Positions 1-56,122 of a stretch of DNA of 64,000 nt are shown in pieces. Source of the DNA: Raillietiella orientalis (lineage: Eukaryota); contig JAYWIR010000089.1 in NCBI GenBank assembly GCA_036172245.1, positions 62,001-126,000 on the forward strand. Direction: 5' to 3'. The notes beneath the pieces are model-generated. The model was not told the origin of the DNA. It saw nothing but the letters and a program-made list of their open reading frames with translations, and searched no databases. The translations under genes were made by a program, and so were the position numbers. Numbering within the stretch: the stretch's first letter is position 1; each line of letters opens with the position of its first letter.

Positions 1-1211
1 AGTATTCAGCGCTGAATAATACAAGTTTTTACTGTCAAGCAAGAAATTGGTATGCATACGATTCCAAGACCCGAAAATTTGTATTCCATGGTAAGGAAAA
101 AAAAACATTTTTTGAATATGAGAAAGAACAACTCATTTTGCAGAAGACAAAGAATGTTCTAACGACACCGGTGTTCAATTTGCTAATGGATGCAATGAAG
201 ACTTCTGGTGGAAGTCCCCTTACAATAAGTCGAAAGATTGCCACAAATACTGTCGTTTCTTCCTGAGACTTATGTCACAAACATGCTCTATAAAGTAAGA
301 AAAACCTCAGCTAATACCCTAGCCATAGATTAAAACTTTACAAAGAGTCAGTATTAATCTTTTGCATCCCTTTAATAACGGAAACCTGCGTTATTCCGTT
401 GGCGCATCTGCATTTTGATAGGAGATTCGATTCTGATAAGGAACCCTAAATAATGTAAAATACTTTATCATCTGAGCATCCTGAAACAACCGTCATTCTA
501 AGGAAATCATCTAGAGATCCGATCATTCATTGCGCAGCTCAGTCTACTCTTCCACCTTGCTCATTATTTGCTTATTCTAAATCTCAGATAAGTTTCAGTT
601 TTCTCACCTGATGAAATGCAGAATCACCTAAATTGTGTCTAATGTAAGCTGCAAGAAGGACATGGAGAAGGAACACTGTAATCTGACTCGATGATGTCCT
701 CATCCAAATTTTGTATGGAGTATTCAATAGACTTTTGGGCTGTGGGAGAAACTTGAAAATTTCCACGATACTGAAGAGCAGACAGTCTCAACCAGCAAAT
801 AGCACCATTCCATCCAAATTAAAATGCGAATAATAAGGAGATAATTTCTGACTATTCGCCAATCAATGAGACGTGAATATTCCATCATGAATCATAGTCG
901 ATAGAAACGAGTATACCAATGCTGTACTGTTCATTTGTCCACATGACTTGAGCTTTTCTCTCCCGCCTTCGCTGAATCGAATCCATAAAGTAGGATTCCC
1001 CCTTAGTTTGCGCCACTGCTACTAGTTTTCTCATCCGAAGGCTTCGAGAGTCCATTTAATTTTCGAAAACGGAAAAGCACCGACAAGCGTAGTCGATGCC
1101 GCTCTCTATCGTGGAGCAGTAGCAACCCAAAGTTCATATGAGAGCATGCTATTCGATTTCCTGCCAATACTGAAACAGTCGAGCGGAACGGTCCCACACT
1201 ATCAATCAGTC

Positions 1212-1287
1212 TTGTCCACCTTGTTTGCTCCGAGTTTCAAGGTTTAAAGAACGTTGTCCACCTTGTTTGCTCCGGGTTCCAAGGTTT
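1212..1287. repeat. Short direct repeat, 2 x 34 bp with 42-bp period
   Basis: TTGTCCACCTTGTTTGCTCCG(A/G)GTT(T/C)CAAGGTTT at 1212-1245 and 1254-1287, 2 mismatches. Confidence 0.85.
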
Positions 1288-3120
1288 TCAACACAAGAAT
1301 GCTCCAGAGTTCTAACGATGTTGACATCGGGGTCTTTCGAGCATCCTATAAACATCACACTCTTGATGTAAACATTGATCTATCTCCGAAATTTTAAACA
1401 TTTTATGGAAGGGTTCAGGGGAAAAAGAAAATTTGTTCTACCTAGCTGCTAACCGAGGTCATGCCGATGTATTGCATAAATGAAATGCTGTTCTTATCGT
1501 GTTCTAGAATTAGACTTATAGAAGCCGATATGAATAGAGGAGTGTCGAGGACTCAGTCATGCCACTCGGCACAGTCGATCTCTATATCGATAGGAGATAA
1601 AAAGCACATACTTTGCGGGAAAAGAAGTGGTGAGGAAGGTAAGACTTTGTTATATTTGAAAACACCAATAAGCATTGACAGTTATTATTTGAAAGCACTA
1701 ACACGAAAGAGCTGTTTCACATGATCTATCATTACTGGGTTTCATGCATCGCACCTTAGAAAACGAATGAAATTTGATGCGAGACTGAGTCACTTTATCA
1801 CGGTTTCCCTTTTTCGTTCTTTTTTAATGAAAATACCCTGATATGTCTCTAAACAAAAAAATTGAATTAACGTGAAAAAGGTGGTGCCATCTACAAGGAG
1901 AGTATGCAGGGCAAATACATTCAATGACTCTGTGGAGATTTGCTCTGCAGTCTTGCAATACTGAAGCTTTACAGTGTAATCTAATTACGATGTAATTAAA
2001 AACATTGCTTTTCTTTGCGAAATCCAACATTTATGATTGCAGTAAAGAAACCGCAATCATAAATGAATGCTTTGGCTCTAAAATTCCAGAAACTGTAAAG
2101 CAGTAGAGAAATGGCTGTCTTTGCTGATTTCGAAACAAAATGGATTTTTGAAACGTGCAAAGAGGAAAGAGCTGAAACAATTGTCTAAATAGGTTCCGCT
2201 TTTGGTAGAAAGTCGACCGAAGCACAGCGCAGAAAAGACCGTAGAGAGATTAGATTGATTTTCATCCGAAATCAGAAAAGAAGGTAGAACTTGCAGAAAT
2301 CGAGCTACGTGCCGCTGACATCTTAATTGGGAGATAACTGCGATCGGATGCGTTCAATTTGTAATGTCGCTGCTGACTGGAAAGACGATCAGAGGGATAA
2401 GTCAAGGAACCTTCATGGTAGACGCCCACCTCATCGGAGCTCTCTCTTTCGGTTTGCAGACAGAGTTGATAAAAGTCGCAGACAGTCGCAGCAGGAGCAG
2501 AGTGTCATTAATGCTGTTAACCTAGGTTCTGTCTGTTGCTTCAGTACAACAGTATTACTAGGTTACATGGAACAACCACCCTGCCATCCATTTCTATGAA
2601 TGTGACGGCCTTGCCGATAACCAGCCATGCAAGTCAACACGGAAATTTAATGATAGCGATTTGTTTTGAAGCTGTTGTTTCATTTTTTTTTTTCCTTTTT
2701 TTCCTGGTCTCAGAATATGTAGAAGCTCTGTAGTATGGACCCTGTTCTGCCGATCCGATGTTCGTTCAGAATTCCATTAAAAAATTAATGCAGACTGGCA
2801 AATGATCCCATTTTACGCAGGCTCTAATTATTTCTGTATTGTTTTGTGAAGATAGGAGGAAGATTTGCATTCTTTACTCACTTGCTGTCAATCTATTCGT
2901 AAATGCGTACAGCTCAGATAAGCGCAATCATGTGAGAGTCACGGCGAACCACTGATGTAACATTGGGATTCGTTTTGCATGCTGAGAACGTTTAGGAACG
3001 TATCCATGTCATACATAATAGCTCAAGCTAAATAATTAAAAAAAAATCATTCTAGAGCAATCACAATTGCTCAAGAATATCGGTGTTTATTTCATATAAT
3101 TTCCATTTCTTCTATTTTAG

Positions 3121-3219
3121 TGGCTTTCAGAACTGGAAAGGCTATGACCCTGATATTAGTAACCCAGCTTAGAAGATTTGCTCTTCACATAAAAGCTTAT
3201 AAGTGTGGATGCAAATCTG
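3121..3219 (+). CDS. Possible upstream exon of the Cys-repeat gene (AFRTGKAMTLILVTQLRRFALHIKAYKCGCKS)
   Basis: ttctattttag acceptor, G|gtgaga donor, 99 nt, open in phase 1-1; not a typical module. Confidence 0.45.
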
Positions 3220-6200
3220 GTGAGAATGCATCTTACCTTCCGTGTTTACACTATTCATCAATCCATGATTTCTAAAGAGATTTTGCGAACACCATAGTAC
3301 AAGTTTGTGTTTTCCTGTTGAACACTGATCTCATCCAGTTGAGAGGATGATTTTTTCATCTCATTTACGTCAACGATCCCACAGAGATTCTTTTGCGATC
3401 TCTTAAAACCCAAGAATCTTCATAAGCGCAGCGCAAAATCATATAAAATCCCTTTTCGAGAGCAAGTTGCCACTGCTTTGATTCGAATCCTCACAGCTTA
3501 AACTTTAGTGCGCTCAAGCTTTATACTAATATGAAGCACCTTTATTCTGGAAAATTGTTTGAAACGATAAAAACAGTTAATAAGCGTCAACAGTCCAGAG
3601 AACAGTGCAATCCCTGGATCTCGGAAGTCCTCGTGCACAGTATGCATACTGTTTTTTGAGAACAAGGGAACTGCTTGTGCTTAGAAATCCCCAGTCTCGA
3701 AAACTCTGTTTTGCTTTCCAGATCCCTTGGAGAGAAAAAAGATACCTTGTGAAAAGCAAGCAATTAAAGACGAAAACTGTCCGTGCTCGAGAACCAGAGG
3801 GAATGAATGTTGGGGCTGCTGTGGATCGCAAAATAAATGCGTCAAAGACGAGTGTAACCTTCTTCTGTCTTTTGTTTATGTAATATGTTCACGAAATAAC
3901 TATATTCTCAATTTCGTGAAATCAATATCTTTTGAGGCAGTCACCATGCATGCATGCAAAGTCATACACATGCATGCATGTGAACTGTCACAATGTGGCG
4001 GAAAAGTCGCACACGGGAATGTATAGTCATCTAAGGAACTCCTCAAAATACCTCAAATTCATTACCGCATATGCAGTAATACATGTGCTCAGCTCAGTGC
4101 AGGGTTCTATAGTATTCATTAAGCTGCAGGATCACAAGCGTCTAGAACAAGTGTATTGCGAAGAATTCTGCAATTTCAACGAGGATTCAGTGCACATGCC
4201 TTTACACCCTGAATACATTTTGGTGATTTGACACGATTGAGGGGATATCGTTTTGCCAACTGTGCTAGAATCCAATTCACTTTGAAAAATGTATAGTAGA
4301 TTTTTGTTTCTCTCTCTCTCCCCCTTTCGTACTCCGGAAGGACCGCAGTCGTCTCTTGGTGTCTGTACTCCCTTTATTAGAGGTACGATGTCGAAAACAA
4401 AAGCATCTTTTCAAAAATCTACAGGGCATCTTGCTTAGAGAGCGTCTTAGAGTGTGCTTGTCTCGGATCTTCGGAAGCAATAGAAAACGGACTGGTGACA
4501 AGCTACGTTGAAGCAATAGCATTTCGAGTTACCATTACTAACGACACTTTAAATTCCCAAATATCAAATAAATAAATACCAGTCGATTCCACACAGTTTG
4601 GTAGCTTTTCTTATATTTCATGAGGTCTGGAGTCTATTCGTTGGAAGAGCATCCATGGAAATTCCGCACACGCATCGTTACTTGAAAAATTGCAATCCTT
4701 CTCTTAGCTGCATTCAGTTCAAAGCGAGATTGCTTCATGTCACGAATACAAGTTCAAAATCCGTATTTTAGACAGCCAGCGTTTAGGGAAAGGGAAGAAA
4801 TCTCTTTGTTCCTTTTCATTCCCATTTTGTTCGTTCGTGGATTGTAAAATGCACACAGGAACATATCAAAATCGTACATAGCAAACTTTAGAGGTAAGAG
4901 GCAGTTTCTCAGGTACTTGAGAAGAAAGCCCATGTTCGAGTAGACTTGCAGTGGATAATTGAGAATGCACAGCCCTGAATTTTGTGGGTCTCTGCGTGTG
5001 CGACTGCGACCATAATTTCCTAGAATTCTTCTTTCTTTTGTGGTGTTATATCAAGTGTTCACACATTTGATGAACATCAAGAACATCTTGCTCTAATACA
5101 GAGAGTTCAATTCTAAAAAGTGACCTTCATAAAAGTGGATCCTCTCATTTGAAACAACGGGATATTCACGAAAAGTGACGGCACGCTGGTCCAAGAGTGA
5201 GCGGGCATCTTCCGAACGTTTGGTAATCATTTTAGAGTTAGAATGACCAGTTTTGTAGTAGACTACGAAAGTGGTCATACGCGTGTCAGTGAACTCTGAG
5301 GCAGGACTCGGAACTTTGGCAAATCCTCCAGACAGATTAGGGTTTAGCACGTTTCCCATTTTTCGTGTAACTTTATTCCAAGAAGGAACTGTACAAGCGA
5401 GATGAAAATCTCCTCATTTGAATTTTTTGAATTTATTCTCCTTAATAATCATATTTTTGATCTCAATCCTTTACATTTTAGGTCCAGAAGTTCTTCCAGG
5501 TGAGTATTTCGTTTTTTTCATGTCTATCTGCCGGCATAGGAAATCTGCTTTCGAAATGTGTGCTTACACCGGGTTACTGATGAAGTCCCAAATTCTCTTA
5601 ATGTTACCGTGCTCCTTCTCTGATTTCTCAGAAGCTGCCTTCATTTATTAATTCGGTCGTCATCTTTAAGCACTATAGCGCTTGCATCTCTCGTGCTTCA
5701 AGATGAACGAAAGGAGTGCTTTATCTTACTCGCTCTTTTGTGGATTCATGTTAGACATTTCTTCAAATAAATTTCAGAATGTCCCAAAGCCAGTAAAGCT
5801 TTGTTTGGCTGTCCTTGTTCAAAGAAGGACCCTTGCATTGATGGTTTGGAATGTAGCTCCGATGGACTATGTGGTAAGGTCAAAGAAGAAAGCTCAGGAG
5901 AACACACATGCTTTTCTAATTCTTGTTTTCATGCAAGACATATGTAAAACACCAGGAAATTATAATTGTCCATGCCTCACAAATGAAACTTGCAGTTATC
6001 CGTACAAATGCATAAATGGAACTTGCAGTGAGTTGTTCAATGAGAACTGGAAGAATTTCTGGAAGATTTGATTTGCCCTAGTCACATGCAGCCCGAAGGA
6101 TGCTTTTGTTTAACTGGGGACAGATGCATGAGTGGAATCTGTAAGAGGAAACGATGTGGTAAGTTGAACAATTCTGCAAGCGTGCTCCTTTTTTGTCCAT

Positions 6201-9200
6201 GCTCCTTTTTCCAAGTGTTGCTATAGAAAAACAAACACACTTTCCTGGAAGTTTTACCTCGCAACATGATTAATATACACTAATCCTAGTTAATACAGCA
6301 CTTGATTTCTATAGTATGCAATAAGTACATGAGCAATAATGATAATGATTTATTCAATAGATTTCACTCCTTGTTTCATCCAAACATGATCTTTTTTCTG
6401 ATAGTGTCGAACTTTAGCATGACTTATCGATGGCTGCATATGCCTTACTCGAATCCCCGGGCAGTTTGAAGGGTTTTCTTATGTTTCCAAAAATTTTCAT
6501 AGGATATACCATCATGAGCATATCCACTTTGAAAGCACTTTGTACTTGAGGAACTTTCGCTTTCGGAATTTCCTGGGTCTCTGTTACAGTTGAGAAAATA
6601 AAAAAAACGAAAACCGAAGCGGCAATGATGCCATCGTATTTACCGCCAGTCAGAGGCTTGCGCTTTTTCTGAAGAGGTACGAAAAAGTAATAAGTGCACG
6701 TTTCGGAGCATCCTTTTCAAACATTCCAGCTTCTTCGATTGAATGAACAGAAAACAGGACACCGGGTCGTTTGAGCAGAAATTGCCCGATAAGAATGCCT
6801 TCTCGTTACCTGAAATGCTGATGCTGGTTGGCTATGAATAAGAAAGAATGACTACTGTAAACGGTGGAGGGGTTTAAGAGTGTACGTGGACACAAGGCCT
6901 GTGCCGCAACAACTTCAACGAATTCTTCGCGTTTCGAAAAGAATATGCTGGGTACTTGGGGAAGGTCAGCAACAATCTCGAATACCTAGAACTGCTCCAG
7001 GGCTGGATGCTCCTAGAAATCACACAATAAACATCAGGGGTTACGTCATTTTTTTCATTTTTTCCCTTGCTTCCTTCCACGATAACGATCACTTCCTGAG
7101 TTTTATGCGATTACCGTATCCACACAATAAGAAGGTGATACATATTGGTTGTTTTGCAAAGAAAAAGACTCTTGATTCGTAGTTTCCATGTACTGACCGT
7201 TTCATGCGTTACGGACTTTGCCATGGTAAGTGCCCTGTAATTAGCACGGAAGCGGTCTTGAATGAATCAGGATGCTGTGCTTGAGAAAGATTCATTTTTG
7301 AGAGGAGCAGATCCGTGCAGTATCACATGCCATGAAAGGGGTCACCGGGCTCGAGCGCAAGTGGAGTCCTTCGAGACACTCGTTGGAACCGATACAGTTC
7401 TGTCTTAAGGTGCTTTATTGAGCTGACTTTGGGGAAGCGACCCAAGTATAGGCAGAGAAATCAAAGATCAGAAACATGATTGAAAAAAGAAATCTGTTTA
7501 TCATTAGGATCCTGCTTTTCAGTTGCTTGTCCACTGACTTCAAAACCAGAAGGTTGCGCATGTAGCTCTGAAAGCGAATGTTTTCCCGGTCTGAAGTGTG
7601 ATTCTGGATCATGTGGTAAAGAATTTCCTGTACTGAAAAACAGAAAATCAACTGATTAAAATGGCCATTTCTTCAAAGTTTATAAAAAATTTCATTTGTT
7701 CCATAGTGTTAGATTGCGAACCACTACCCAGGTCTCCTTACTGCGGATGCACAGCTCCTGCATGGTGTACAAGCAAAAATTGCGTTCACGGAAAGTGTGG
7801 TAAGAAATTTGATGTGGCACTTTAAAATTACAGTGCGACATGTAATGTCAATTCTTCTGTCAAAAGGGAGGGAAAGAGAAGAAGATTGGTTTCAAGAGTT
7901 GCGCAGACTTGTTCAATATGCTTTCTTCAGCTTTGAAATGCAGGAATGAATAAGGGAGGGCATCTGACAGACAACTGCACACTACAGACAACAGAACCCG
8001 AAAATGATAGATTTCGAATAGTCGCCTCTTGAGATGTAGGCAGAGCAGATAATCTGACTGAGAATTCTCCCAGATAACTCGTTGCTTTTCGTTTTGCAAG
8101 CAATCTTTGTTGGTTGTTTCGGAGATCGCAAGCTGTGCACTAATGTGCACCACAACACTCATGTGTGCCATATGTATCTGCTTATGCTAAGATTCCGGTC
8201 AGTGATTCAAAAAGACTTTTATGGAAAGGATACGGACATGGATCGTGTTAATTGCAGCATGAATGTTCGGATATGCAGTGAATTCGTATGACAATCAGAA
8301 GGGAAGAGTGGTTAAATGTACGGAAGAATTAATTCCGTCGAAAAAAACATGATTGTGTTCGCTTTTTGTAATGTTTGCCTATAGAGGGGCAAATTTCTAA
8401 CAGCCTGATATGCAATAAATTATTCTTAATGAGGCAATGCATGCAAGTGGGAAATTGCTACTTTCTTGCGCCAAGCTATGAAGGATGGAGAAAAACAGTT
8501 GCATTTCATGCCAGTGGTCATGACTTGGGGCTTCGGAATAGTAGTAGCATTAATAATATGAGATCGTGATGGTTGCTCGTATAATCCTACCTAAGGAGTG
8601 TGCTCGTTCCGTTGTAATAGCTGTGTCTTGCCATTGGAGTAAAGGTTGAAAAGCGTTACATCTGAAGCTCCCATTAGCCGAATGCTTCCAGTTGCGTTTT
8701 GTAATCCAGGAGGTCTCTAGACGGACCTATACTTGATGTCCATAATTATGATTCTTATGATGCTCATTTTCAAGACTCCTCTGCTGTCTGCCTTTATAAA
8801 TTAGAGCCTTTTCCGATCTCAATGGCTCATCGAATACCAAAAAACTGAAGTGCAAGTCTTAAAAGAATCCACTTGCGAAACTCATTTTCTTTTCGTCTTT
8901 AAGACCACCTTTGCTTTCCTGTATGTTCGATTGCAGATCCATCAACTGGGAGATGCAGGACCGAGTTGGACTGCGCTAAAGGATACAGCTGCTCGGGTGG
9001 ACGGTGCAGTAAGTTTCTCAAAGCGCTCTTTACAAACTGCTCACAAACTTGGAAACCTTTGTTCGTTTGCACATTTTCCATATGGGATGAAAAAATTTCA
9101 CTAGAATATGACATCTCTTCTCAATACATCTGTAAACACGTTCCTTGCTTTTGCTGAATTATTATCTATCTGGATGTTTTTCTTTCTTTATTGTAGAGAT

Positions 9201-12200
9201 TATTTGTACTAAAATACCTTTGGCCCCTACTTGTCCATGCGAGCAACCTGGTAGCTGTTCCATTAAGTCATGCTCGGCAGGAAGATGCGGTAAGTCTGTC
9301 GTTTGCTTTGCACTCTTATGCAAGCCTCTCTGCTGCTCATTTTTTCTCTTGCGTGACTTCAAAGATCCGTGCATTGCAGGAAATTTTTTACAAAAACATC
9401 GGAATTTCCGAATTCAACACGAAGACTGGAGTGATGCACGAGTCTTAGAAGTAATTTGTGCACAAAAATTAAGAATATTCGTAGCGCTCATTCACTTTTA
9501 TTATTAATAATGTCATTAGATTAGTAGATTTCTGCATCGGGCTAAGTGAATCAGTACAGGTTGATCCCAATACAGCTGTTTTCTTTCTTACATTTCAGAT
9601 GTTTGCATCCGTTCTTTGGGAACCAGGAATTGTCCGTGTCCATGTGCACCTGGATATAAATGTGCTACCATCACTAAGATGGTCGAGAGATGCGGTAAAT
9701 GATGTATTAAGAAATTTTTGAAATAGACGGCTCACCTTCGAGCCTGACTTTCTTCTTTCGAGAAAAGATACTAAGGATATGATTTGCTCTCGCGTTTGAA
9801 TTTTCGATTGTTCAATGTTTGAGTTTTCTCTCTTCGTCCTTGCATCAGATGATTTTTGCTCTTAAACTATAAGAATCAGTCGAGAAACACTCAGTGATTT
9901 TTGAAAGGGAATCAGTTTATCAACGTAGGCATGAAACTTGGAGCTGGACAGACGATGAAAAGAACTTCTGAATTGCAGATATTGATTCTTATAGCTTGTT
10001 GGATACTTGAATTGATTCGAACAGAACTTCTGAACTATGTTACGTTGATCGTTCTTTAGCGCGCTTGAACCCTGGGATAGATGCAGAACGAAAATGATGG
10101 TAGATACGCGAAGATGGACCAGTCAAACTAGATGTTCCGCGAGATACAGAATTTCAATTTCTCTGCATGTCAATCCTTTGATTCCTCACAGCGCAATCGA
10201 GTTTTGCATATTCGGCAGTTTGACAAGAACATGGTGCTCCTTACACTGAAGGCTGCATACGTCGTCAATCGATCCCTAAAACTGAATCATTAGGAAGTTT
10301 TTTTTAGCAAACCTCCAAGTGTCAAGAAAATGCTCTTTATGCGTTTTCTATCTGAGTAAAGTTAAAACAGTCTTAACATAAACGCTGCCATTAAGATTCT
10401 GAATACGACGATCTCTCTGTAGAAGGAAATGTTTTTCAGAATATGATCGAGGGACACATATTGTCCTTTCTGAAGGCTCCATTATTCTGTGTTTAGGATT
10501 CAAAAGTAAATAAGATCGAAGCCAGCTACGTAATTCTTGAGAGCGCGATGTGCGATGGCCAAGACGCGGTGAATGTAAGGAAGGGGCTGTTGAAAGCTGG
10601 ACCACTGCTTCTCTCTTCACCAGTACTGGGTAACGAGCGCGAAAGATTTCAAGGTTAATCACAAATGGTATCATAAAGAGAGAGCTGCGGAAGGTGAAAC
10701 ACTAATCTTTTTTGCGAATTCGCGGAAACTGATTGCGTTAGCTAACGCAACTGCATATGGTTGTAAGCTCTACTTGTCTTCTTTCCCCGTTGAACGAGGT
10801 ATATCTTAGCCAGGGAAATACGTATATGGTCGTATGCGGAAAAATGTGTTCTAGTTTTACCGTAAGAGTCGAAGAGTGGTTTGCATCCCGATTTTCCAAG
10901 ACTGCGCGATGAGTTGGGAATAAAACTGCCCAGATATAGGAAGAGGAAATAAAAAATAGGATTACAACGATCGCTTCCGTGTTATTGGGATGCGCATTTT
11001 CTCGTTAATCTCTTGGTGTCATGCACTGTCTTGATGCGTTCTGTTTTTCGAATGAATGTTTTTATGGAAGTGCTGCCGATTAACAAATGAGCAAGAACCT
11101 CTGCAGGAGACCGACGAAAACTGAGTTCACTTCGATACGAGAGCATGCAACTTAAAGTTTCGCCTTTCAGCACCCAATTGCAATGCAAGCGTCAATGTTG
11201 TTGGCTGCCCTTGCGAAGAGAACAAGGAATGCACAAGCTTCACGTGCTTACGGCGGAAATGCGGTAAGTGCTTGGAAAACGCGTTGCTTTAGACTGACTG
11301 CGAGGCACGATTACCACGTCGATGTTGACGTGAAAAGCAGTTGAGATATCATCGGTGTGCTTTAAGAGATGACTGTATCTTTCTGCCATGTTAGAATTTG
11401 CCGAATGCGTCAATGACATGCCAAGAAGCAAAGCACAATTAAGCAGATTTCGGTTTTTCCCGAAATTCAGATAAATCGAAAGCTTGAAATTAGAGAAATA
11501 GTTGTCCGGAACGTGTGCAAGAGTCATGTCGGATTGCAGCTGGTTTCAGATGCCTGCCAGCGAAATTTTTGTAAACGTTCGTTCAGTAACTTTTCGACGG
11601 TATTCTTTGCATTCATATGGTAATAAACTGCGCTCGTTTCATTCCATGGACTTTCCCGTTTCGCTTTGGCAGACACGTCTTGTTCCACGCAATGATAGAG
11701 AGAATAGTTATCTAAGAGAAAGACGCGTGAGTACGTGCAGATGCAAAGGAGAAGCTTCCAAGTCAATCACAAAACCATGTTTTCTAGAATCTTGCGGAGA
11801 GTCTCACGGTCTTGAGGACTGCCCTTGTCTCTCTAACATGGATTGTGCATACGATCTGGCATGTTCGACATTTGGATTTTGCGGTGAGTGACACAGAGCC
11901 ATTCGAGTCTCCGCCTATCATACAGGCATTTCTTTAAAATACCTCGAAATTCTTCACCAATCAATACAAAAACACACACATTCGGGTCGCAAATGCATCG
12001 CATGATTCAATACCAATTCCAAGCAGCCATGGTCCAAAACTCATTTCCATCACTTTTAGAGAGAAGACTTCAATGCGAGAAAGCTGTCTCCGCATTATTC
12101 TGCCCTTGTGATGGGAAGAAATGCGCCTCAGAATTGGAATGTAAGACAAATTTATGCGGTAAGTAAGCGTGGTTTTGACTTAAAGAAGATGATGATCGGC

Positions 12201-15200
12201 TGCCACATCCGAGCCTGAGCCGATTTCCCTCGGTCGCTTCTGTGATCGAATATGTAGGGTTTCTTTCTTATCATGTGCAAAGGCACCCGATTCATCTAGT
12301 ATACATCTTTAAAATGTGTACTGGAAACAGCAAAGCAAGCCCTCACATCATTGGAAACGGCAACTGAAGGCTGCGAAGTGTTATTCTGGAAGGAATTTTT
12401 CGAAACAGCAAAAATAGAAAGTCGAAGGAAAAGTCATGGCTTTCGGCGGCACTACCTTCAAATACTTTCTTCTGATTACTGTACTCAGTGGAAGTTATGC
12501 ATGCAAATGAAATACTAAGGCACTGGCTTGTGAATTCTCAAATACCTATGATCACCTATGATCTTTACATGTTTTCATCATCTCGAGGAACTTGAAACTC
12601 TGCTCCGATACAAGTAGTTCGGAAGAAAGCTGTTCATGAATCTCTCATTGTAGGCTCATGGGATTGTCATTATTCATCCTGTGCCATCACATCACTATTA
12701 TCATTTTGGTTTGTGGAAATCATCCACTTCTTATAACTGAAGTTTCTTCTTTACTAATGCAAACAATAGGCCGTCTGGAATCGAGAATTCGTTGCTGTTG
12801 AGTCAACTCAGGTGTTACGGGTATGAGCCAACTTTTTCCATGCTTAACAAAATCTCTCAGGTTCCTATGGATGCATTCATGTAGTTCATTATGTATGTAC
12901 TAAGCTTTAAATCTGCTTTCGATTTTTTAAGAGAAATTTGCTTTCGTGATTTCGTCACAACTAAAAGCAAAGCAACATTGCTAGCTTGCTCAATATTTTC
13001 GTGAACATGTAGGGGAAACTCGCACCGAAATTCATGCATATGTCGTCCACCTTCAAGAGATCAGAATTGTTCACTGAAATCTCTCAAAGGAATTTCTTGC
13101 TCCTTGGAAATGCGTAACTTCCTGAAAAAAAAATCGATCCATCGATAAGAAGTCTCTTCCCATTTGGACTTCATTGCTCGCTCTCGTGAAACTCGAAGTT
13201 GTCGCTTCTGCTTGCATGACAGCTTACCAATTCTCCAATGGTTTAGCAAGGACAAGAAACAAGAATCTGGAAGATCCCGGATTCTCTAGGAAAATATGTT
13301 TCTGCTCCCGTATGTTCCGATCAGAATCTTGACTTTCCGTCGGCATTTATTTTTGCTCTCAGCAACTTGCAAACACGCACCGTTTCACACGAAAAATTCG
13401 TATGTCTGAGGATTCATTTTCATTCATTTTTTTTCCATTTCTTCATGAGTTTGCACTTGCTTTTTGGTAAAAGAGAAAGAAGCCTTGGAATGGTAACAAA
13501 CCCCTGTTTTTGAAAAGGTGAGGAGTGCTTTGCTGGATGGGTAACTTGATTTGACAGTTACCTGTTTCGCAAGCAAAGAGAGCAAAACTCAAGCATGACT
13601 CGAGGATTTAGTAGGGATGCACGTAATTACAGTTTGAATCCCCCTATCTTACAATATGATTCTTGTGGGTAAGAATGATCCAGATCGCTCGTATTCTCAG
13701 CATTACAGTGCCTCATGAGCAACGTCTTAAAAAACACTTTTCCACACTTTCGTCGTCATCATTATTATTTTTTTTTGGATCTCTCTGTGGCTCCAAGGAA
13801 AGTGATCGGCTGGTTGTCTTGCAGTTCGATAAATATGTAACATATGTACCCATGACTTTCGTATTTTTGAATGTCTAAAGAGAAATGTGCAGAAAATTCC
13901 AAGCAGTCATGGAATTACACAATAAGAATGTATGTGCAACTGATTCCTGTGCTTTGGATTGCATTCTAGGATTCCATAATTGTCATTACAGAATCATTCA
14001 TAATGAAAAATATTCGGTGATCAAATTCTATTTGGTTTTAGAGCATCCTATAGAAGCATGCAAATCTTCATTATACAAGGGACCATCTTGTCCCTGCTCG
14101 CATCCAGAAGAATGTGCATCTCAGCTCTGCAAGAGAGAAATCTGTGGTGAGCACCATCGTGTCCTCATTTTCTGAATCAACTTGCGGAAGTATGTAAAGA
14201 ACTCGTGAATCTATTTTTCTTTCGGCAATAGCTGCTCGTGCTCTTTGTTTTCTTTAATGACTGAAGTGCGACTGCAGTAAACAAACTTATCTTTGGTCAA
14301 ACTTTGAAGGAATTGCGAAATGCCTCAGAAGCACTGAAAGATTGATTATTTTTCAGCCGTCTGCTCAGGATCTGGTCGAGACGTGAACTGCGACTGCTTT
14401 ACGAGGGAAGACTGCAAGAAATCATTCATATGTGATTCGACGAAACATGTCTGCGGTATGCTGTTTAGTTGTAAACCGATTATTGTCATTGACCTTATCC
14501 GATCGAATCTGCTCCAATGCAGTGCTGATAAATACACTCCGGTTCCGTGAAGTGTATTCGTACCGATTCAAGAATAGATAGAAACGCATTTTTGGTATAA
14601 AATACAAATTCCTTGACCCAGAAATGATGAAAATTAAAAGTCGGTTGAAATGCTCGACTCCCGAATGACCGAAACATTTTGTGATTCACTTTTTATTCGT
14701 GTTCAAATGAGCTTTGTTTTGCAGTTTTGATTTCTACCAAATGACTACCTTGTCTTGTTCATAGCTCCAGGTTGTGGGGAACCTGTGAGATCTCCTGGAT
14801 GCCCTTGCGCTAAGGATAAGGAATGCATAACTGAAGACTGCTATCAAAACAGATGCAGTTAGTATGAACTTTTGCATCCTTTCTGTTCAAGAAGAAGAAA
14901 TGGCATCTTCTTTCTGATTTCCATCAATCAATGACTGCCTTATCTGCTTTTGGAGAGCATATTTTTCTCAAGCTTTCTATCCAGCCAAGTGATGAAGCAG
15001 AAGGGCATCAGCGAACAACTGCATAACGAGCTGGTGCTAACAATCTGGCTATCCTGAATTAGCCCGTGGGATCTATTTCCTTAGGATGATTTTTTGCCAT
15101 AATGAAAGATCGCAGGTTGAACTTTTGTGCGTGTGACGAAGTCAACTGGAATCTGTGGAATGTGCACCTGGGAAAAGTAGTATTGGTGCCTTTATTACTG

Positions 15201-18200
15201 CTTGTTTCGGACTATACTTTTTGTGTTTTTCTCGAAAGAGCATCCATCATTTTTTCTCTAAAATCAGAGGAGATTCTTAATGGATATGGTTCCATGAAGC
15301 AGGATACTCTAGCTAATTTTGCTTTTCCGTTTTTTATTTGAAAGGTGAAAATTTCAAAACTCGTTGCTTCGAAAACAGGGACATTTTTTTCTTTGATCAG
15401 CTCAAAGTTCTAAGAAGCATCTACTGAGGGTCTTATTGAGAATGCCTCGAAGGATGTTACTTGGTGGCAGACAGTTGATACCGGGGACCAGTTATTTGAC
15501 TATTTTTTATTGGTTACTTCCTGTCTTTGCTATAAACTTTTGTAGATAGCGTACCAACCTACCACTATTACTCGAATGAGCTGCCGCATTTAACGTGTGT
15601 GCCGTCAACAGTAGAGGGGCTGAGAAATAAGAATGGTATATGTGCAACGGAAGGCAAAGGAGATGTTGGTTCCGTCTTCTGCGAAGCATATTGTTTTTAC
15701 TAATGGTACATTTTGATGGCTTTGGCGTATGACGATGAATTGCAGGATGAGATTTTGGTCGAAATATGGCATTCTGTTTTCTTATTTCCCTTCTTCACTT
15801 TTACCTGAGGAACTGTAAACTTTGCAGCTGATCCGTAAGTCATTTTTTTCGTCTTCTTATGGCAACCTTGCATGTGGCAACGAAGTTTCCATAATGTGTA
15901 ATTTAGTTGAGACTCCAAATGTAAACCCAGTGGATCCCAGGGTCGGTTTCATCCTCTATCTTTTCTTCGCTACCAGAGGCATCTTCTTCTAGCCATTGAT
16001 AGCAGTGGGTACAGATGTTCCACATTTTTGAATTAGAGAAAAAGAAATTGGGCTCATGAATCAGATATCACATCATGCCTTATGACAGTAAATTTCAGAC
16101 CGATGTCCTCCTCACGATAAGCCCAGAGGATGTCCTTGTACACAGTCCCCGGAATGTAGCAGAAACCTCATTTGCATACATAATGTGTGTGGTGAGTTTT
16201 CATAAAGCATATCAATCTAGTGAAAAAGTCATAATCTTTCCTCTTCGCTTCCTTTTGGAATGAAGGGTTTGGTGATAACAGTTTATTACTGCACTGAAAT
16301 CAGTTTCGAATTCTTACAACGCAGGCAAAGCTATAAATACAGATAATTTATGTAGGAGATGCCGCGCACAGCTATAAACCTTGCATGCAAAAAGGCAAAG
16401 GTGCACAGCATGCACTTGAATAATGCTGTGTCTTCCCCTAGTTCCCAGATGCGATACAACGCCACTTTTATCACTTTGCACTTGCAAGTCCCCATCGGAG
16501 TGCGCAAGTGGAGTGTGCTATGACGGATTATGCAGTAAGTACCCAATTTCAGTCTTTCCACACAGATTCCCGAATTTCGCTTTGAGCTGTTTGCCTTGCA
16601 TAAGTGCATCAAACATTTCGAATGCTTGAAAGCAGTTTTCCCATATTTCGCGGATCATGCTGAAAGGGTGACAGACGTCGCACGCACCTTTCAGACGAGA
16701 AGGAAACCATTCGAAGTTGGACTGTTTCTTTTTTTTTTCTCTTGCATAAAAGACAAAACAATGACAGAGTCCGCGAGGGCTTGGAACTTTACGAAAATGA
16801 AGCTCTGATCGGCTAATAGTATCCAAACAAATGCTTTCGTTGAGCCAAACCTCAGATATATTTTTACCTTCTTGATACATATATTTCCTTATCGACCTCT
16901 TGCTAGAGAGTTTGTCAAGCACACCTCTAGCATGTTCGGCCACTGAGATCCATTGCTGACGAATCTCATCTGGAAAAAATTGATGGCAAGAGATTCAGGC
17001 AAAAGCGTGAAATTCCAGTGCAAATGATCTCAAGTTTCCCAGCGCGTATTCCACAGACACGTGCAGCTTCACAGTTGCTCGTCACCCAGTAACTCTCCGT
17101 TGATCCACCACCCAGGTTTGTCACGGAAGCAGTGCAACGAACCGAATCTAACTAGCGAGGACCACCGACAAACAGAAGCTGTGTACAATAAGATGAACGC
17201 AGACTGCTTCGATTAAGAGCACTACGAATCGAGGAGGAGGAAAGATAGGACGTATTCCGGAAATAAGGCGTATTTCCATCAGAATAAGTCCCTTATACAA
17301 ATTTTCTCGTACTGTGGCGTGTAGCGTACTTGAAGTGATTATCCAACAGCTTAGAAATTAAAGGAAGCAATCAAGTATTTTTCTTCTTAACATGCAAGTA
17401 TGTGTGTTTTTTTGTAGCTCCCTGTTCAAAGAAACCTGGGGAAACCAACTGTGCATGCTCCTCTCCAGATGACTGTCAGGGATCATGTGATGAAAAAGCT
17501 GCAGTCTGCAGTAAGATCATTGTCTCGTGAAGTCGAGTCTGAATGCTCCCACAACCATAATGGTAGTTTAAAGGGAGAAGATAAGTTGAATCGCTTTAAG
17601 TCTGAGTTCATCCTAATGGAATTTTTTATCCATGATGCGACAAGATTTGTTTGAAAATGCACGTGAAAAAAAACCTTGCTTTCTTATACGCTGCTATATG
17701 TCTAACTGTTATGAGCGCAATCAGCGAAGGCAGTCCACGTTTACAAAAGCAGAAAATATCGTGGGGCATCTGCTATTCATTAAAAACTCTATGAGCTGTG
17801 TTCTAATGAAAGCTGGTCACCACGAATTACTTCATCACGTATTGTCTTTCTTAGTGAATTACTGCTCCAAGGGAAAAATTCTTCATTCAGGTGGGTCGTG
17901 TCCTCCAGGATATTCCTGTGTAAAGACTCTCACAAAAGGAATATGTGGTAAGGAATCTTTCACCCACCAGTTACCGATTGCTTCTTTGACGTGATGCTTC
18001 ATTGACGTCCGGCGGTACAGCGTTATTAATTTACAACAAAACCGATTCACGTACATTCACCATGGGTTCCATCGTTCTATTTCTGGGACTCAAGATTCCA
18101 AGCTCACTCTCAAAGATTAGATCCGTACTCTTCATTGCTGTGATTTCGTCCTTGTCTTATATGCGTGTTTAAACAAGAATTCATCAGATAGATCACTACT

Positions 18201-21200
18201 TTCTGCTGCTTCCATCTTCACTCTCCTAGAACAGCTGCATCATTCCCTTTTGCAGCAAAGTTCTCACAGTCGAGTTTAAATGAAATTTCCAAAGTGTAAA
18301 TGGAAATTTCAATTATTCGCCCAGTCCTTTCCTCCAGTTATTGGGAAGGCACCGAGCACGGATTCTTTCGTGTGTGGTGACTCTTTACCACTTGGAACGC
18401 ACGATCAATTGCATTCGAGGTGACCGAGTTTCTGACTATTGAAACTGCAATGAACTTTTTCTTCGTTTCCATTCCACACAGTGCATACGCCAAATTACCC
18501 TTTAAGATTCGTACTTTTATCCATTTCTGAATTTATTGTTCTGCTCCTTGTTTTGTAAGTTCCGTCTGCTCTATGCGCATCGACGAAGAGTACTTGCGTT
18601 TGCCCTCATCCCAAGTGGTGTATTCGAAGTTGTGCTTGCGGTACGTCATTATGTCACAAACAATCAAGAAGCAAGTGATTGCCTTTAGTGATGTGCGTTT
18701 ACCCTGCGCCGAAGAAGTGTCCCTGTGCGGTACCTTCCAGCTGCCAAGGAAAGCTGATGTGCAAATACTACGATGATTACAGCGGAGTTTGTGGTAGGCT
18801 CTTATGGAATGCGTAGGTGCCTGTAACTCGGTTTTCCCGAAGAGGAAGCATGTGTCACCGAGAAGCTTTTCCCTTACTGCCCATGCTCTTCTAGTTTCCA
18901 ATGCGCAAGTGGGACCTGCATAGACGAATTTTGTGGTAGGGACGATCCTTTCGATTTCATCCACACAGTTTTCTGCTCTTCTTTGATGCTAACGAAGTTG
19001 GAATGCAAGTGCAAGAGCAAATTTTTTGCAGACATTTGCCGCAGCGACTCACGCGGTGAATACTGCCAATGCGAAAAGGACGAGGACTGCGAAACATCTT
19101 TGAGGTGCAAGGAAGGCGTATGCAGTGAGTGCCCCTCACACTTTCCACTTTTTTGCCCTGAACTGTATCTGGACTCTTGTAGAATATTCGATCTATTTTC
19201 GCCTCGTCTAAACGTATTATTCAAAATGCGAACTTTAGTATCAGGAAACTGATCAACGCTCATCAGGGGATTGCAAACTTGCAGTTTGCAAGACCTGGTT
19301 TGTCACTAATGATAAGCAATTGGTTCCATAATTGCGTGCGCTTTCCCCATCGGAGCTCCGGCTTGATAGCACCTCTAAAGCCATGATCCCTAGGTCGCTT
19401 CAAATGCCCTCCAAACCCGCCCTTCCCTCCGGAATGCCACTGCACACGAGACTCTCAATGTGCTTGTCGGATATGTTACAAAGGAAAATGTGGTGAGTAT
19501 AAGATGATTTGAGAATGGCTTTTGCACCCAGCGACTGCAACCGCTTCTTTCTCATGGTTTCAACACTTAACTCGAACGTTGAGCAAATCAGGATGTGTTG
19601 CACGCTTTTCACGATAGATCTGTGACACTGATTGCAATGGAACGCTGATCACACGGTAAAATACCATTTTCTCCCCTTGTAAAAAGAATTTCTCTTAACA
19701 GTAACGACTTCCTCGGCATGCGGCAAGCACTCCTGCAATTGCATACGCGATGGAGACTGCGCAACAGGAAGCATTTGCGTGGATTGCTACTGCCGTGAGT
19801 GTGTTCCCACTGGCGTCTCTATGCGTGTCACCACCGGATTTCAGAGAAATGCGAATACCCGTTGACACCTGGCTGCTACTGCAGCAACTCCCATCAGTGC
19901 GAAGGAACGTGCAATCTGGACGATCTCAAATGCGTCCCAGGTAAACATGCAACGGTCTTTTCAGTGGAAAGTACGAGTGGGAGGCTATGGACTCCAAATG
20001 GGCGCTCTCGTTAAGGGCGTTCCCCTGGACGCGAGCCGCATGCACCTTATCGACAAGAAGTCGCCGTAGGTTTGTGGACAGAAGGCTGAGCGATTCCAGC
20101 AGTGACGGAATGCCGTCATTGCATCATCTCTTTCAGATTCTCTCTGCAAATTCGTTGGCGCCCCAGGATGCTTCTGCACGAAGGATCCATCTATTTGTCT
20201 GGACGAATGTGTATCTGTTCCAGGAGTAGGCTACTGCGGTAGGCAACGGTTTTCAGTTGTGACCTTCCCCCTGCGCTTTTTCTTCCCTCTTTCCCTGTTG
20301 AGATCAGCTTTGAGGTCACAGCAATAGTTGTCGAGACAGCAATTCTGCTCGCGTCCCCTCCATCCTCACAGGAGCGATGGTAGCATCGCATATTTTCATG
20401 CTTCGAAGAAATGCCAATGATGCCATTCGCTCACTTCGCATGTCATTGTTCGTAGGGAGCTGCCAAAACCCACCTTACAGTTCCTTCTGTCCTTGCGAAA
20501 AAGGCGATGATTGCCTCAGTTTGACATGCATCAAGGAGATCTGCGCCCCGGTGGATGGTCAGTACGCTTTGTGGTTTCGCGGAAGACACCCTTGAAAGCA
20601 ACCATGATGTTTCCAAATTAGACACATGCGCAAAAATGTCCACAAGACCGCCCCTCTGCAGCTGTTCGCATCCCAGCCAGTGCCTGCATTCCTTGTGCCT
20701 GAGTAAATCATGTGGTGCGTTCATTTCCCACGATCAGAAATTCGGGAACGGGACATGGTCTCGCGGTCCTCAGCACTCAAGGACGCCTGTGCGGAACGAA
20801 GCAAGGAGGGCTGCCCTTGCATCAGCAAAACGTCATGCAAAGGGAAACCATGCTATGCGGTTGTGGACAATTTCAAAAAATGCACCGGTAGTAAAAGACA
20901 TTTGCTGCTCCATTGCAATCGTATATTCTTCAGCGTGTCCTGGAGGGGGCGGCTGTCCTTGCAGCACCAGCTGCATCACCTGCATAATCCATGCGAGAGG
21001 ATACATATGCGATGGAGGTTGTTGAGAGCCAACTGCAATTTGTATCTTACCTTTTCCGTTCCTCTGTTTCCGAATTGCGAACTCTGGACTACTCAGAAAT
21101 CTGCAAGCTCCCCGTAAAAGCCCCGGGATGCCCTTGCCTAATTGACTCAGAGTGCGAACAAAAGTTCTGCAGTGGGAATGCATGCGGTGTGTTGTCGTTT

Positions 21201-24200
21201 CCCGGGTTGCGTAATGCGTGCCATCTCTAGGCTGCTCCATGCCTTCTCCGGACGGTTGCGCCTGTTCCTTCCCTGAAGACTGCTACAACCTATGCGAGGA
21301 GCAGCCGGGTACTGGGTTCTTGAAGTGCGGCGACAGCAAAGGTACGTACGTGCCTCCACATTCTGGAGCAGCGGAGGAGCTCGTTGGAGAGACTGCTACT
21401 CCGCAACTCTTGCATCCACGTGCCTTTCCAGGCAAGTGCTCAAGAAAAAAAGAGGATGGCTGCGCTTGTGAATTCAATGTTCAGTGCCGCTCCCGTGTCT
21501 GCGTGAAGAGGGATCCTAAATCAGTGTTTGGGACGTGCTGTGAGTAGTGCGATTGTAAGGGTCGCCGAGGAGCAGTTTTCACCAGTCCGCCGCCACCCAC
21601 CAACGCGTTGAAACCTACTCTAAACGAAAGTTCTTACCCTAACTAAAAACCACTCTAAAACGTATCCCTGTGGCCGCATTCCCTTTTTGGAACGACGACC
21701 TGTGCTCCAGGATGAATTCCCTTTTCTGTTTCCCTCCCGATGGAAAATGGAAAAGAAATTCTGCATCACCTGATACAAGCGCCGTATCCGTTTCCTTATA
21801 CTCTTTTTTTAATCTGTGCTCAACTCTCTGTGGTCCCGAGCACTGCATGAACGATAACGCCACTAGCTCCAGTCCCCTCCTCTGGAAATCCATTTCCGGC
21901 ATTCTTTCGTTCGTGCCAGTCGCTCACTGCTGTTTGGCGAGAGAATGAATGATCGTGGTCCTGCATCCGTGACATCTCATGCTCACGAGTAATCTAACTG
22001 TGTAGATTCGCGGTGCGAAGTGGTGCCCAGGTCTCCTTTCTGCAAATGCAGATCTCCCAAAGAGTGTAAGCATGGATTTTGCGCGAAAACAGGATGGAAA
22101 AAAGAATGCGGTACGAAGACTCTGCTGCTCGATCGGGGCCTCGTGACGTGGCGGGTGCGATTTCATGCATTTCATTTCAGTTGACTGCAGGACTGCTCCC
22201 CGATCTCCTGGCTGTTCGTGCATCACCAACAGTCACTGCAAGGGACATTGCCGAAAGAAACATTGCTCAGGTACCGAGGAAGTAGTTGAGGTTTGCACTC
22301 CGGAAGCACCTTTGAACCACCCGTGGTACCTGCTTTGGCTGTCTGCGTGTGCATTCAAGAACGCCTTCTTCACCTGAGAGACGGTGATGAAGATAAAACG
22401 CGATGGCGATTGCTGCCTTAATTTTGCGCGACAGCTTCCGCTAATTGTAAGCCTGCAAAATTTGCCAGCGCTCTTTCCTGCGTGTCTTGCGGGGAAAATT
22501 GCTGCTTGCACGCAGTTGACGTTCAGAAAGAGCCTCAAAGTTGCACCTTTTTCCAGACTCCGGGTGCTCAAGGAAGAAAATGCGCCCGAGCGGTTGCCCG
22601 TGCGTTATACCGGGCGAATGCTTATCCGAGGAATGCGTACAGAGCGAGTCTGGAAAAGGCATGAGCTGCGCAGGTAGGGCACTGCTCATTTCGACAAAAG
22701 CCAGCGGCGAGGTTGCGACCCTGGCAATCTACGGCAGTCCCCCAATTTTGGTCTACTCGCCCTCTTGTGTTTCAGCATACTGCTTTTCCGTCAGAGGCAC
22801 GCTGTCCGCATTTTTATCTTCAGGATGTCCGTGTTCCAGGGATATCCAGTGTTTGGGATGGATGAAGTGTCACAAAACAACCGGAACTTGCGGTAGAGTT
22901 GGTCCTGCTGAAAAATCATGGACAGCCGGTCCCATTTTGATCGCGAAATGTCGAAAACGACAAAAACGAAAAACCTTTGTAATGTCTCAAGGGGGACTGG
23001 GCACTCTATTCTCTTCGGGTTCTATCCCATCTCTATTTCGCTTTCAAAGAATAGCCATTCAGCGAAAAGTGGAAATGTAGAGTCGAAGTGAAGTGCGCAC
23101 TTCTTAAATACTTGATGTCGGTTGATGCAAACGGGATCATCAGCTGTCCGTGATCAACGTCGTCTGGACCAGTCTAGCACGTGTTCCTTCTCAAAGATGT
23201 AGCATTAGTTAGGTGCTGAGTAATACCTTTCTTCAGTGTTTCAATCGGAGAATCTAATGACACGGTCTCGAGTAGATGACATTTATGTGGGTAACTTTGC
23301 AGAGGACTGCTCTTCGGTTCCGAAGACCACAGGATGCCCTTGTGACGATGACAGCGACTGCTTCAATCACTGCATCAAAGGATTGTGTGACAACAGTAAG
23401 CGAATCCCTCGTTATTTGTGGTCGTGGGGAAATCTGGAAATCTTTCTCTTTCGGCATCAGAGAGTTGAAAGCGTTGTTTTTAGTTTGGACGCTCATTTGT
23501 GGATCGGGCGAAGGAAATTCTCTCCTTTTTTTGATCCTATTTTTCGTGAACACCACTCCGGAAATTCGATTTTTTTGTTGTTGTTTTTCCTGAAACTTTC
23601 TGGCAAATCAACAACACAGACGAGCGCTGAAGATGTTCTGATAGAAGCTGTGCCTGTCATGAATAGACCTTTTGCTACATGCCGCTTAACAAAACGGCAT
23701 TTATCTTTAGGAAATCTGATTCGCTTGTTCATTTATCTATACAAAAAATAACGAGGCACCTCACGTACTGAATAAAGAGGAAAACAGAAATGAAATCATC
23801 GTGCACCGGGTACAAAACTGCCTCGGACGATTGGAATTTGCCAAAAAAGACTAGGAAAGGATACTCAAATATTTGTCAAATATTTATCCATCCCTGCGAG
23901 ATTCTGTCATTCGGTTCCTGCCTTTCTCTCAATGCAAGACTCTTCGTTCCCGCACATTACCCGGGAAGGGTGTGAAAACGAATACGCGCACTGCTTGACC
24001 TCACTCTCATTGAATTTAGGTTTGTGCTCGGGGTCGAATCGTCCAGACGGCTGTTCGTGTGAAATAAATGACGAGTGCATAAGCCGCGCCTGCTTGGTGG
24101 TTTTCACGACAGGCTTCAAAAAATGCAGTGAGCATCTCTCGATTATCCTACGGTTCATCCGAAAGAGTGATCCGGAATGATGTCTGTCTCCAGTTCACTG

Positions 24201-39624: not shown

Positions 39625-39658
39625 AGATCGAAGGTAACTCGCCTCCGTTAATCTGGAT

Positions 39659-55500: not shown

Positions 55501-56107
55501 CCCTGGATTCGGTTGTCGATCTCCACGCTATGAAGGACGTGATCGATCGGTTTGTGGCTGGCTGTTCGCCACACGAGTCCGAAGTCGTTGGACAACCGTC
55601 GATACGCCTCTCTTCCTCTGATGTCTTGACGGTACTTGATGTGGTCTTGAATATTCAGGTCACCCGCGACGATGACCATATCCTTCGGTGCTACAGGTTG
55701 GCGGAGTGCCTCGTGGAGAGCCTCCGCGCATCGATGCTTGTTCTTGTGCGGTCCGTACACGTTCACCAGAAACAGGTGAACGTTGTCTGACCAGAACAGT
55801 CGCACGCCGATTATCCTTCCAGCGAGTGGACAGAAGGTTTCCAGAAGGGTGTGGACGAGCTCGTTCTTGATGAGGATCACCACACCCATGGTCTTCCTTT
55901 GTCCCTCGCTGACAAACAGTTGCCCGTTGAACCGGCGTTCCATCTCCTGGGCGTTTTGTTGCCCGAGACGGTGATTTCCTGTAGGCACACTACGTCTTGT
56001 CTTGCGATGGTCCGCAAGATTGTCTTCCTTTTGCCTTGATCTGTCAATCCATTGATGTTCCAGGAGGCGATGTTTAGACTCCTGGCGTTCGCTAGCGACG
56101 AGGACAT
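52590..56107 (-). pseudogene. LINE ORF2 (AP endonuclease, reverse transcriptase, C-terminal CCHC), disrupted
   Basis: IASWNINGL, CLQE, VNVYGP, AGDLN, IDHV, LSDH; GPDS, WRPISVLNSD, DREKAFD, GVLQGNSLSPMLF, LAYADD, KYL; CPACGDTDTRLHILTC. One frameshift near 55975 and in-frame TAA at 53769-53771 and 52821-52823. Confidence 0.93.
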
Positions 56108-56122
56108 GAAAGGGTTCGAAGT

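Follow-up and report, generated by a model that had tools for sequence, protein, structure and literature searches.

We analyzed a 64,000-nucleotide stretch of Raillietiella orientalis DNA (contig JAYWIR010000089.1, positions 62,001 to 126,000 of the forward strand; the whole stretch is called the window here, and coordinates are counted from its first letter), in which an earlier note had described a hidden gene of many small cysteine-rich exons. Our results indicated that the region between positions 5778 and 25217 of the plus strand is probably the 3′ part of a single large arthropod gene coding for a type I single-pass membrane protein, in which a chain of disulfide-rich modules would form the stalk. 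The predicted product would have a very long Cys-rich ectodomain, an EGF-like domain beside the membrane, one helix and a short tail without a recognizable domain. Module exons 2 to 41, the EGF-like exon and the transmembrane (TM) exon, 42 consecutive exons, join into a single open frame of 1444 residues whose sole stop is the terminal one. With an EGF-like exon that reaches the Pfam cut-off for EGF_2, this frame upholds the idea, put forward in the earlier note, of a single multi-exon gene that ends in an EGF-like domain and a TM helix. The ectodomain part of the frame comprises 1345 residues with 246 Cys and three N-glycosylation sequons (NxS/T).

Exon structure and reading frame

A search of the whole 64-kb window for the core motif of the module (C.C plus three further Cys at module spacing) gave 35 matches on the plus strand and none on the minus strand, all 35 of them confined to positions 3778-24315. 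The flanks of the first 14 cores displayed a pyrimidine-rich tract and an AG ahead of the first Cys and, in most cases, TG[TC] G|GTAAG after the last one. By a systematic scan for phase 1-1 exons we delimited 41 module exons of 81-132 nt between positions 3722 and 24298 (plus strand), all with the symmetrical phase 1-1 and with one module per exon; every one of them has a length that is a multiple of three, an AG before it and a GT after it. The array of one-module exons proposed in the earlier note is real, but its figures had to be corrected: the 40 exons of 72-132 nt became 41 exons of 81-132 nt, the first of which cannot be joined to the rest.

Splice signals were counted over 42 exons, namely the 41 modules plus the EGF-like exon. 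Donors of the form GTAAG or GTGAG follow 22 of these exons and G is the last exon base in 28, while the acceptors read CAG in 20 cases, TAG in 17 and AAG in five, with a pyrimidine fraction of 0.66 at positions −20 to −4 compared with 0.51 in the background. After splicing, the codon that follows the last Cys of a module consists of this G and two bases of the next exon, and at 28 of the 41 junctions it specifies D, V, E, A or G. The terminal CG formerly ascribed to the modules did not survive this delimitation, since it is largely the donor G|GTAAG read on into the intron.

The GC content of the window ranges from 39 to 58%. Exons 1-19 have a mean GC at third codon positions (GC3) of ~0.40 and are separated by introns of up to 1.9 kb at 26-43% GC; for exons 20-41 the mean GC3 is ~0.58, and the introns measure 43-624 nt with a GC content of up to 58%. 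The gene seems to cross a compositional boundary between a GC-poor first part and a GC-richer second part.

Downstream of the modules lies the EGF-like exon (24647-24754, plus strand, phase 1-1), which scored 22.1 bits against EGF_2 (PF07974), a borderline match at a cut-off of 22.1 (E 2e-4, profile positions 1-32 of 32), and 21.4 bits against EGF (PF00008), just short of the cut-off of 21.5. It is followed by the TM exon (24907-25217, plus strand), which encodes a hydrophobic helix and, if read straight through to the TGA at 25215-25217, a cytoplasmic tail of 73 residues after the helix. This stop gives the simplest 3′ model; the alternatives join a donor at 25167 to an acceptor at 25441, and a stop at 25594 needs yet another splice. 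The 3′ ends under consideration are 25217, 25594 and 25647. Of the extent 3722..25594 and the tail of about 85 residues given in the earlier note, the succession of TM helix and tail stood. The limits did not, since exon 1 cannot be joined to exon 2, 3′ ends other than 25594 are possible and the simplest tail has 73 residues.

The six-cysteine module

An alignment of all 41 modules (A1) yielded the consensus x-C-x8-C-x-C-x5-C-x4-C-x4-C, ~30 residues long, with four invariant Cys columns and two nearly so. Exactly six Cys are found in 37 of the 41 modules and the signature C-x-C-x5-C in 34, and the length of the last loop lies between 1 and 11 residues. The only further preferences were for Gly ahead of C2, for Pro both in the first loop and between C2 and C3, and for an acidic residue preceding C4. 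With the Cys columns set aside, the identity between modules averaged 12% with a maximum of 35%, adjacent modules were no more similar to each other than distant ones, and Tandem Repeats Finder detected no DNA-level tandem repeat in the array; taken together, these results indicated that the array is old and without ongoing homogenisation. The description of the modules as hypervariable is apt for their deep divergence, but active diversification was not supported.

Successive modules are tightly joined. The linkers, counted between the final Cys of a module and the opening Cys of its successor, comprise 1-6 residues (2-3 in 26 of 39), and a dibasic pair occurs in one of 40. The net charge of single modules ranges from −6 to +6 and sums to +15. 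Because the linkers are short, the disulfides dense and the glycosylation sites few, and because the scaffold residues alone are conserved, we infer that the chain serves as a stalk. It would be long, protease-resistant and semi-rigid and would hold an N-terminal head off the cell surface; rough reasoning puts its extended length in the order of magnitude of 100 nm. Constraint would act on the scaffold residues only (Cys, Gly and Pro) and the loops would be free to drift, which would account for an average identity of only 12% among the modules. The term receptor, used in the earlier note, is backed by the stalk and the membrane anchor, but it goes further than a gene that is 5′-incomplete in the window allows.

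To Pfam, the modules were compared singly. None of the 41 reached a Pfam cut-off, and nine families were touched at E ≤ 1: LEAP-2 by three modules, DUF7107 by two, and CPL1-like, Lustrin_cystein, CC, Toxin_18, Chitin_bind_1, Dumpy_DPY and Dickkopf_N by one each. The EGF models were matched by none of the 41 modules at this level, and WAP, TIL, Kunitz and ShK are not among the nine families. The best module against DUF7107 (PF23416) obtained 20.5 bits, under the cut-off of 24.6, the single Dickkopf_N (PF04706) match had an E of 0.16 and did not reach its cut-off, and EB (PF01683) was matched by no module. No curated family covers the complete six-Cys module. Two earlier proposals, that the module differs from EGF, WAP, TIL, Kunitz and ShK domains and that it belongs to an undescribed repeat family, are in concordance with these results.

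Relatives in protein collections

As suggested in the earlier note, we searched with a profile of the module alignment, and among 1,835,955,588 representative proteins 40 matched at the threshold of E ≤ 0.001. The top match was XP_043214807.1 (P0001) of the barnacle Amphibalanus amphitrite (E 7.7e-29, 43 matched stretches, 1846 residues), and it is the only comparable long array among the 1.84 billion representatives. The protein likewise comes from an arthropod, one that belongs to another subphylum than the best matches of the plasma-membrane Ca2+-ATPase (PMCA) gene of the window, and its modules follow the pattern C-x(9-11)-C-x-C-x5-C-x4-5-C-x(4-13)-C, with 48 overlapping pattern matches. 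The two arrays differ in that the barnacle protein consists of near-identical two-module units, whereas the modules of the window share 12% identity. The barnacle model lacks a signal peptide, an EGF domain and a TM segment, and it appears to be incomplete. Its record name, 'neurogenic locus notch homolog protein 1-like isoform X1', is an automatic label that looks wrong; no Pfam family, including EGF, Notch and DUF7107, matched the protein at E ≤ 0.01. When its first 400 residues were used as the query they retrieved only the protein itself (length range 1015-3231), and a search of the ESM Atlas with residues 240-600 gave a best score of 0.78, under the useful range. Our literature search found no mention of DUF7107 or of the barnacle accession and nothing relevant on barnacle Cys-rich TM/EGF proteins or on six-cysteine one-exon arrays in arthropods. 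On the DNA side, positions 2222-14221 of the window had no look-alike stretches in other genomes.

DUF7107, EB and Dickkopf_N proteins dominate among the matches. Of 14 further matches that we scanned, 11 reached the cut-off of one of these three families. The named records among the 40 include a fungus, a Patescibacteria protein and a Nanoarchaeia protein, which share the four-Cys unit only. The full six-Cys pattern is present in four of the 40 matches, namely P0001, P0022 (a protist transcript) and P0034 and P0039 (metagenome proteins that we judged prokaryote-like); the last three have two or three modules each with the spacing 9-1-5-4-4, and those of P0034 come after an N-terminal hydrophobic stretch. 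Judging by these sequences, the six-Cys module may not be confined to animals.

An hhalign comparison of the module alignment with a DUF7107 protein gave a probability of 62%, and a search of the profile against all PDB sequences retrieved only LEAP-2 (2l1q, E 0.019) and DKK2 (2jtk, E 0.37), both on C3-C6. The likeness to DUF7107, EB, Dickkopf_N and LEAP-2 lies in this C3-C6 half, which has the same C-x5-C-x4-5-C-x4-C spacing, and the difference lies in a Cys pair that the window module adds (C1 and C2, the latter being the first Cys of 'CxC'). The earlier note had called the C3-C6 part EB- or Dickkopf-like, and the DUF7107, EB and Dickkopf_N proteins, LEAP-2 and DKK2 retrieved by the profile bear this out. 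We propose that the C3-C6 half could be a widespread four-Cys unit, represented also in these four families, to which the N-terminal pair would have been added.

Predicted fold

The AlphaFold2 model of module 5, computed with the alignment of all modules, had a mean pLDDT of 93.2 and predicts that each module is a compact knottin-like disulfide mini-domain. The seven rows that Foldseek returned from the PDB are without exception small disulfide-rich peptides, and knottin-type toxins or inhibitors make up six. VIA-align, a structure search independent of Foldseek over 48,161 chains, returned 12 rows with Z ≥ 2, of which 10 were peptides of the inhibitor cystine knot (ICK) type and the other two draxin and LEAP-2; the nine best ICK-type rows had Z values of 2.1-3.2, and the root-mean-square deviations (rmsd) over 24-27 residues were 1.1-2.2 Å for the ICK-type rows and 1.1-1.8 Å for the nine best rows. 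Most of the structural alignments to knottins begin after C1. A longer construct, P0022 (96 residues, three modules), was folded without an alignment and gave a mean pLDDT of 50.9, which is uninformative.

Two schemes of Cys pairing are conceivable. The ICK-like scheme would join I-IV, II-V and III-VI, and a C2-C5 bond of this type is hinted at by module 19, since exactly C2 and C5 are missing from it. Alternatively, the module may have a LEAP-2-like core of III-V and IV-VI with an additional I-II bond; LEAP-2 itself pairs 1-3 and 2-4.

Exon-by-exon description

All exons lie on the plus strand. Exon 1 (3722-3853) is atypical, with seven Cys at the spacing 9-1-7-2-0-5, and is probably a relic. 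It is followed by exons 2-4 (5778-5873, 5938-6027 and 6066-6158), the acceptor of exon 4 being doubtful, and by exons 5 and 6 (7523-7615 and 7707-7799), the former encoding the module used for AlphaFold2. In exons 7-9 (8904-9008, 9197-9289 and 9599-9694) the Cys positions are shifted in 7 and 9. Exons 10-12 (11171-11263, 11788-11883 and 12060-12158), 13-15 (14042-14146, 14357-14455 and 14765-14857) and 16-18 (16099-16191, 16442-16534 and 17418-17510) precede exon 19 (17855-17947), the sole four-Cys module, which has the spacing 11-5-8.

Exons 20-26 (18560-18640, 18689-18793, 18843-18935, 19032-19124, 19394-19492, 19702-19794 and 19845-19940) are separated by introns of 48-269 nt and are followed by exons 27-34 (20137-20238, 20456-20557, 20622-20714, 20774-20890, 20934-21017, 21097-21186, 21231-21341 and 21432-21539). 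Among exons 35-41 (22006-22110, 22181-22270, 22557-22673, 22776-22892, 23303-23395, 24020-24127 and 24194-24298), several encode a module with a long last loop (x8-x11).

Weak points of the model and alternative explanations

Several observations weigh against the model of one long stalked membrane protein. The exon junctions are predictions from genomic sequence alone. All five phase-compatible donors of exon 1 produce a TAA upon joining to exon 2, because each in-phase GT site of exon 1 ends in T and exon 2 opens with AA; either exon 1 is a relic, which is probable, or the model needs a further exon within 3854-5777. The phase 1 start of exon 2 requires further exons upstream and makes the gene 5′-incomplete in the window; no coding piece was recognized on the plus strand between positions 1 and 3721, a Pfam scan of the upstream open reading frames (ORFs) included, and any N-terminal head domain lies outside the window. 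Exons 3 and 4 are separated by only 38 nt, a gap that is probably too short for an intron. Steric hindrance could make the use of these two exons mutually exclusive, or exon 4 may have its acceptor elsewhere, for instance at 6099, where the first Cys of the module is dropped. The only in-phase donor of exon 31 is a weak GTTGT, and with it the last Cys is cut off. The defects at exon 1, before exon 4 and at exon 31 could mean that the array is decaying. At the other end, the TM and tail exon had no relative at E ≤ 0.01 among proteins of 180-2000 residues and no Pfam family, the tail ORFs likewise had no Pfam match, and the tail had no look-alike among the other DNA windows compared. With regard to the fold, the structural matches are weak by absolute measures (Z no higher than 3.2 and a Foldseek E of at least 3.6) and are suggestive only; a high Z was out of reach, since the model has only 30 residues. 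Finally, a passive spacer and a binding surface would fit the present data alike.

This last point leads to the alternative to which we give some weight while regarding it as rather unlikely, namely that the modules are themselves a binding surface. The protein would then be a multivalent receptor for pattern recognition, phagocytosis or adhesion of the Eater/Nimrod type, in which divergent loops provide avidity for microbial or matrix ligands. Its architecture parallels that of Eater, for which the available text of PMC4359741 gives 32 EGF-like/Nim repeats, a TM segment and a tail without known domains; moreover, the loops differ at almost all positions, the net charges of the modules vary from −6 to +6, and the C3-C6 half matches the core of an antimicrobial peptide, LEAP-2. 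However, an identity of 12% with the scaffold residues kept is equally expected from the neutral drift of a spacer. A different reading of the same gene, which we hold to be improbable, is that the array is a decaying, non-functional copy whose working family members are elsewhere in the genome. The defects of exons 1, 4 and 31, the absence of a head within 3.7 kb upstream and a tail without relatives would all fit such a copy. Nevertheless, 40 module exons and the EGF and TM exons keep their phase, open frame, Cys scaffold and splice signals over 19 kb, which makes a long neutral decay unlikely, and the upstream exons may simply lie past the window edge.

The remaining two explanations dispense with the stalk, and both were rejected. 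On the first, the gene would encode a polyprotein precursor whose ectodomain is released and then processed to individual knottin-like peptides with a role as toxins, inhibitors or antimicrobials, as in the earlier note's idea of released toxin- or inhibitor-like peptides. The resemblance of the predicted fold to knottin toxins and inhibitors speaks for such a precursor, as does the existence of tandem disulfide-rich toxin domains known as SCREPs, described in an excerpt of PMC6262176. Against it stand the linkers of 1-6 residues with one dibasic pair in 40, the TM anchor, and amidation-like 'CGK' endings that turned out to be the donor G|GTAAG read into the intron; the SCREP survey, according to the same excerpt (PMC6262176), was restricted to secreted proteins of 20-500 residues. 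We consider this processing very unlikely, and the proposed shedding was not supported. Less credible still is that the exons are divided among several small genes, each coding for a secreted Cys-rich peptide. An in-frame Met between the upstream stop and C1 exists in 19 of the 41 modules, and a crude test found a signal-like hydrophobic stretch before two of the 41, as such genes would have; yet the other 22 lack any Met before C1, all the exons share the phase 1-1 with AG and GT directly at the module borders, and the joined frame has one TM segment and one terminal stop. The stalked single-pass protein described above is the reading that we prefer.

Neighbouring genes and elements

Exons of a PMCA gene lie at ~33885-36153 (plus strand) and include a 322-residue ORF at 35185-36153 with a Cation_ATPase_C domain. 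Proteins of spiders, a scorpion, horseshoe crabs, mites and centipedes share 83-85% identity with this piece (35185-36153), which indicates that the DNA is of an arthropod without a close annotated relative. The earlier suggestion of a host-interface antigen received no support, as the similarity of this adjacent gene to chelicerate and myriapod proteins points to a free arthropod lineage rather than to an obvious parasite.

An apparently intact long interspersed nuclear element (LINE) occupies 52824-57994 on the minus strand. Its ORF2 (53772-56195) has endonuclease and reverse-transcriptase domains, and the same region and strand hold a 623-residue ORF1 (56126-57994) and a 315-residue ORF (52824-53768), neither of them with a Pfam family. 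A 368-residue open frame at 39638-40744 (plus strand) has no Pfam family at E ≤ 0.1. When the upstream ORFs, the tail ORFs and the ORF at 39638-40744 were scanned together against Pfam, the only match was one to OCRE at chance level (E 0.061).

Comparison with known systems

The nearest solved folds to the predicted module are the ICK (knottin) peptides of spiders, cone snails, sea anemones and plants. The ICK consensus, as given in a portion of PMC4881942, is CI-X3-7-CII-X3-8-CIII-X0-7-CIV-X1-6-CV-X3-13-CVI. Loops 3-5 of the module are within this consensus. Canonical membership was rejected, since loop 2 has one residue in 39 of the 41 modules against 3-8 in the consensus and loop 1 usually has eight against 3-7. 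The setting also differs, as knottins are single or double secreted peptides and the window encodes a predicted 40-mer membrane-anchored chain. Membership among the SCREPs was rejected as well: tandem domains are present, but the protein has more than 1400 residues and a TM helix, whereas the SCREP pipeline, according to the excerpt of PMC6262176, was limited to secreted proteins of 20-500 residues with at least two tandem disulfide-rich domains.

In overall architecture, the Eater/Nimrod receptors of Drosophila are close counterparts: according to the available text of PMC4359741, they cross the membrane once, have small six-Cys modules in a tandem series of more than 30, and end in a tail that contains no known domain. 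The difference lies in the module: Nim repeats are EGF-like, and none of the 41 window modules touches an EGF model at E ≤ 1. We found no sequence relation between the window modules and Eater/Nimrod; an EGF identity of the modules was rejected, and a NIM identity appears unlikely. The Cys spacing of the Nim consensus also appears to differ from that of the window module, and the N-terminus, at which Nimrod proteins have a CCxGY motif, lies outside the window.

As a speculative extension, the six-Cys module (C-x8-10-C-x-C-x5-C-x4-C-x4-C) might be an old, uncurated extracellular family that was multiplied in arthropods to the 40-mer chains of a new class of giant receptors, with its divergent loops used for multivalent recognition in adhesion or innate immunity and not for spacing alone. 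If the protein of the window is real, it would add a new type of module to the exon-shuffled extracellular domains, show how far such a module can diverge while its scaffold is kept, and point to a gene family missed or mislabelled by automatic annotation, since the only array found carries a 'notch-like' name. The profile of the module would be useful for gene prediction in arthropod genomes. The building plan is a known one, carried out here with a different unit that is predicted to be knottin-like and occurs in 40 copies with hardly any sequence in common. No curated family exists for this module, and protein databases contain almost no long array of it. Animals have repeatedly built receptors as single-pass membrane proteins with an extended series of small disulfide modules, as in Notch, Eater, MEGF and the integrin stalks, and to our knowledge nearly all the module chains known from such receptors are of the EGF type.

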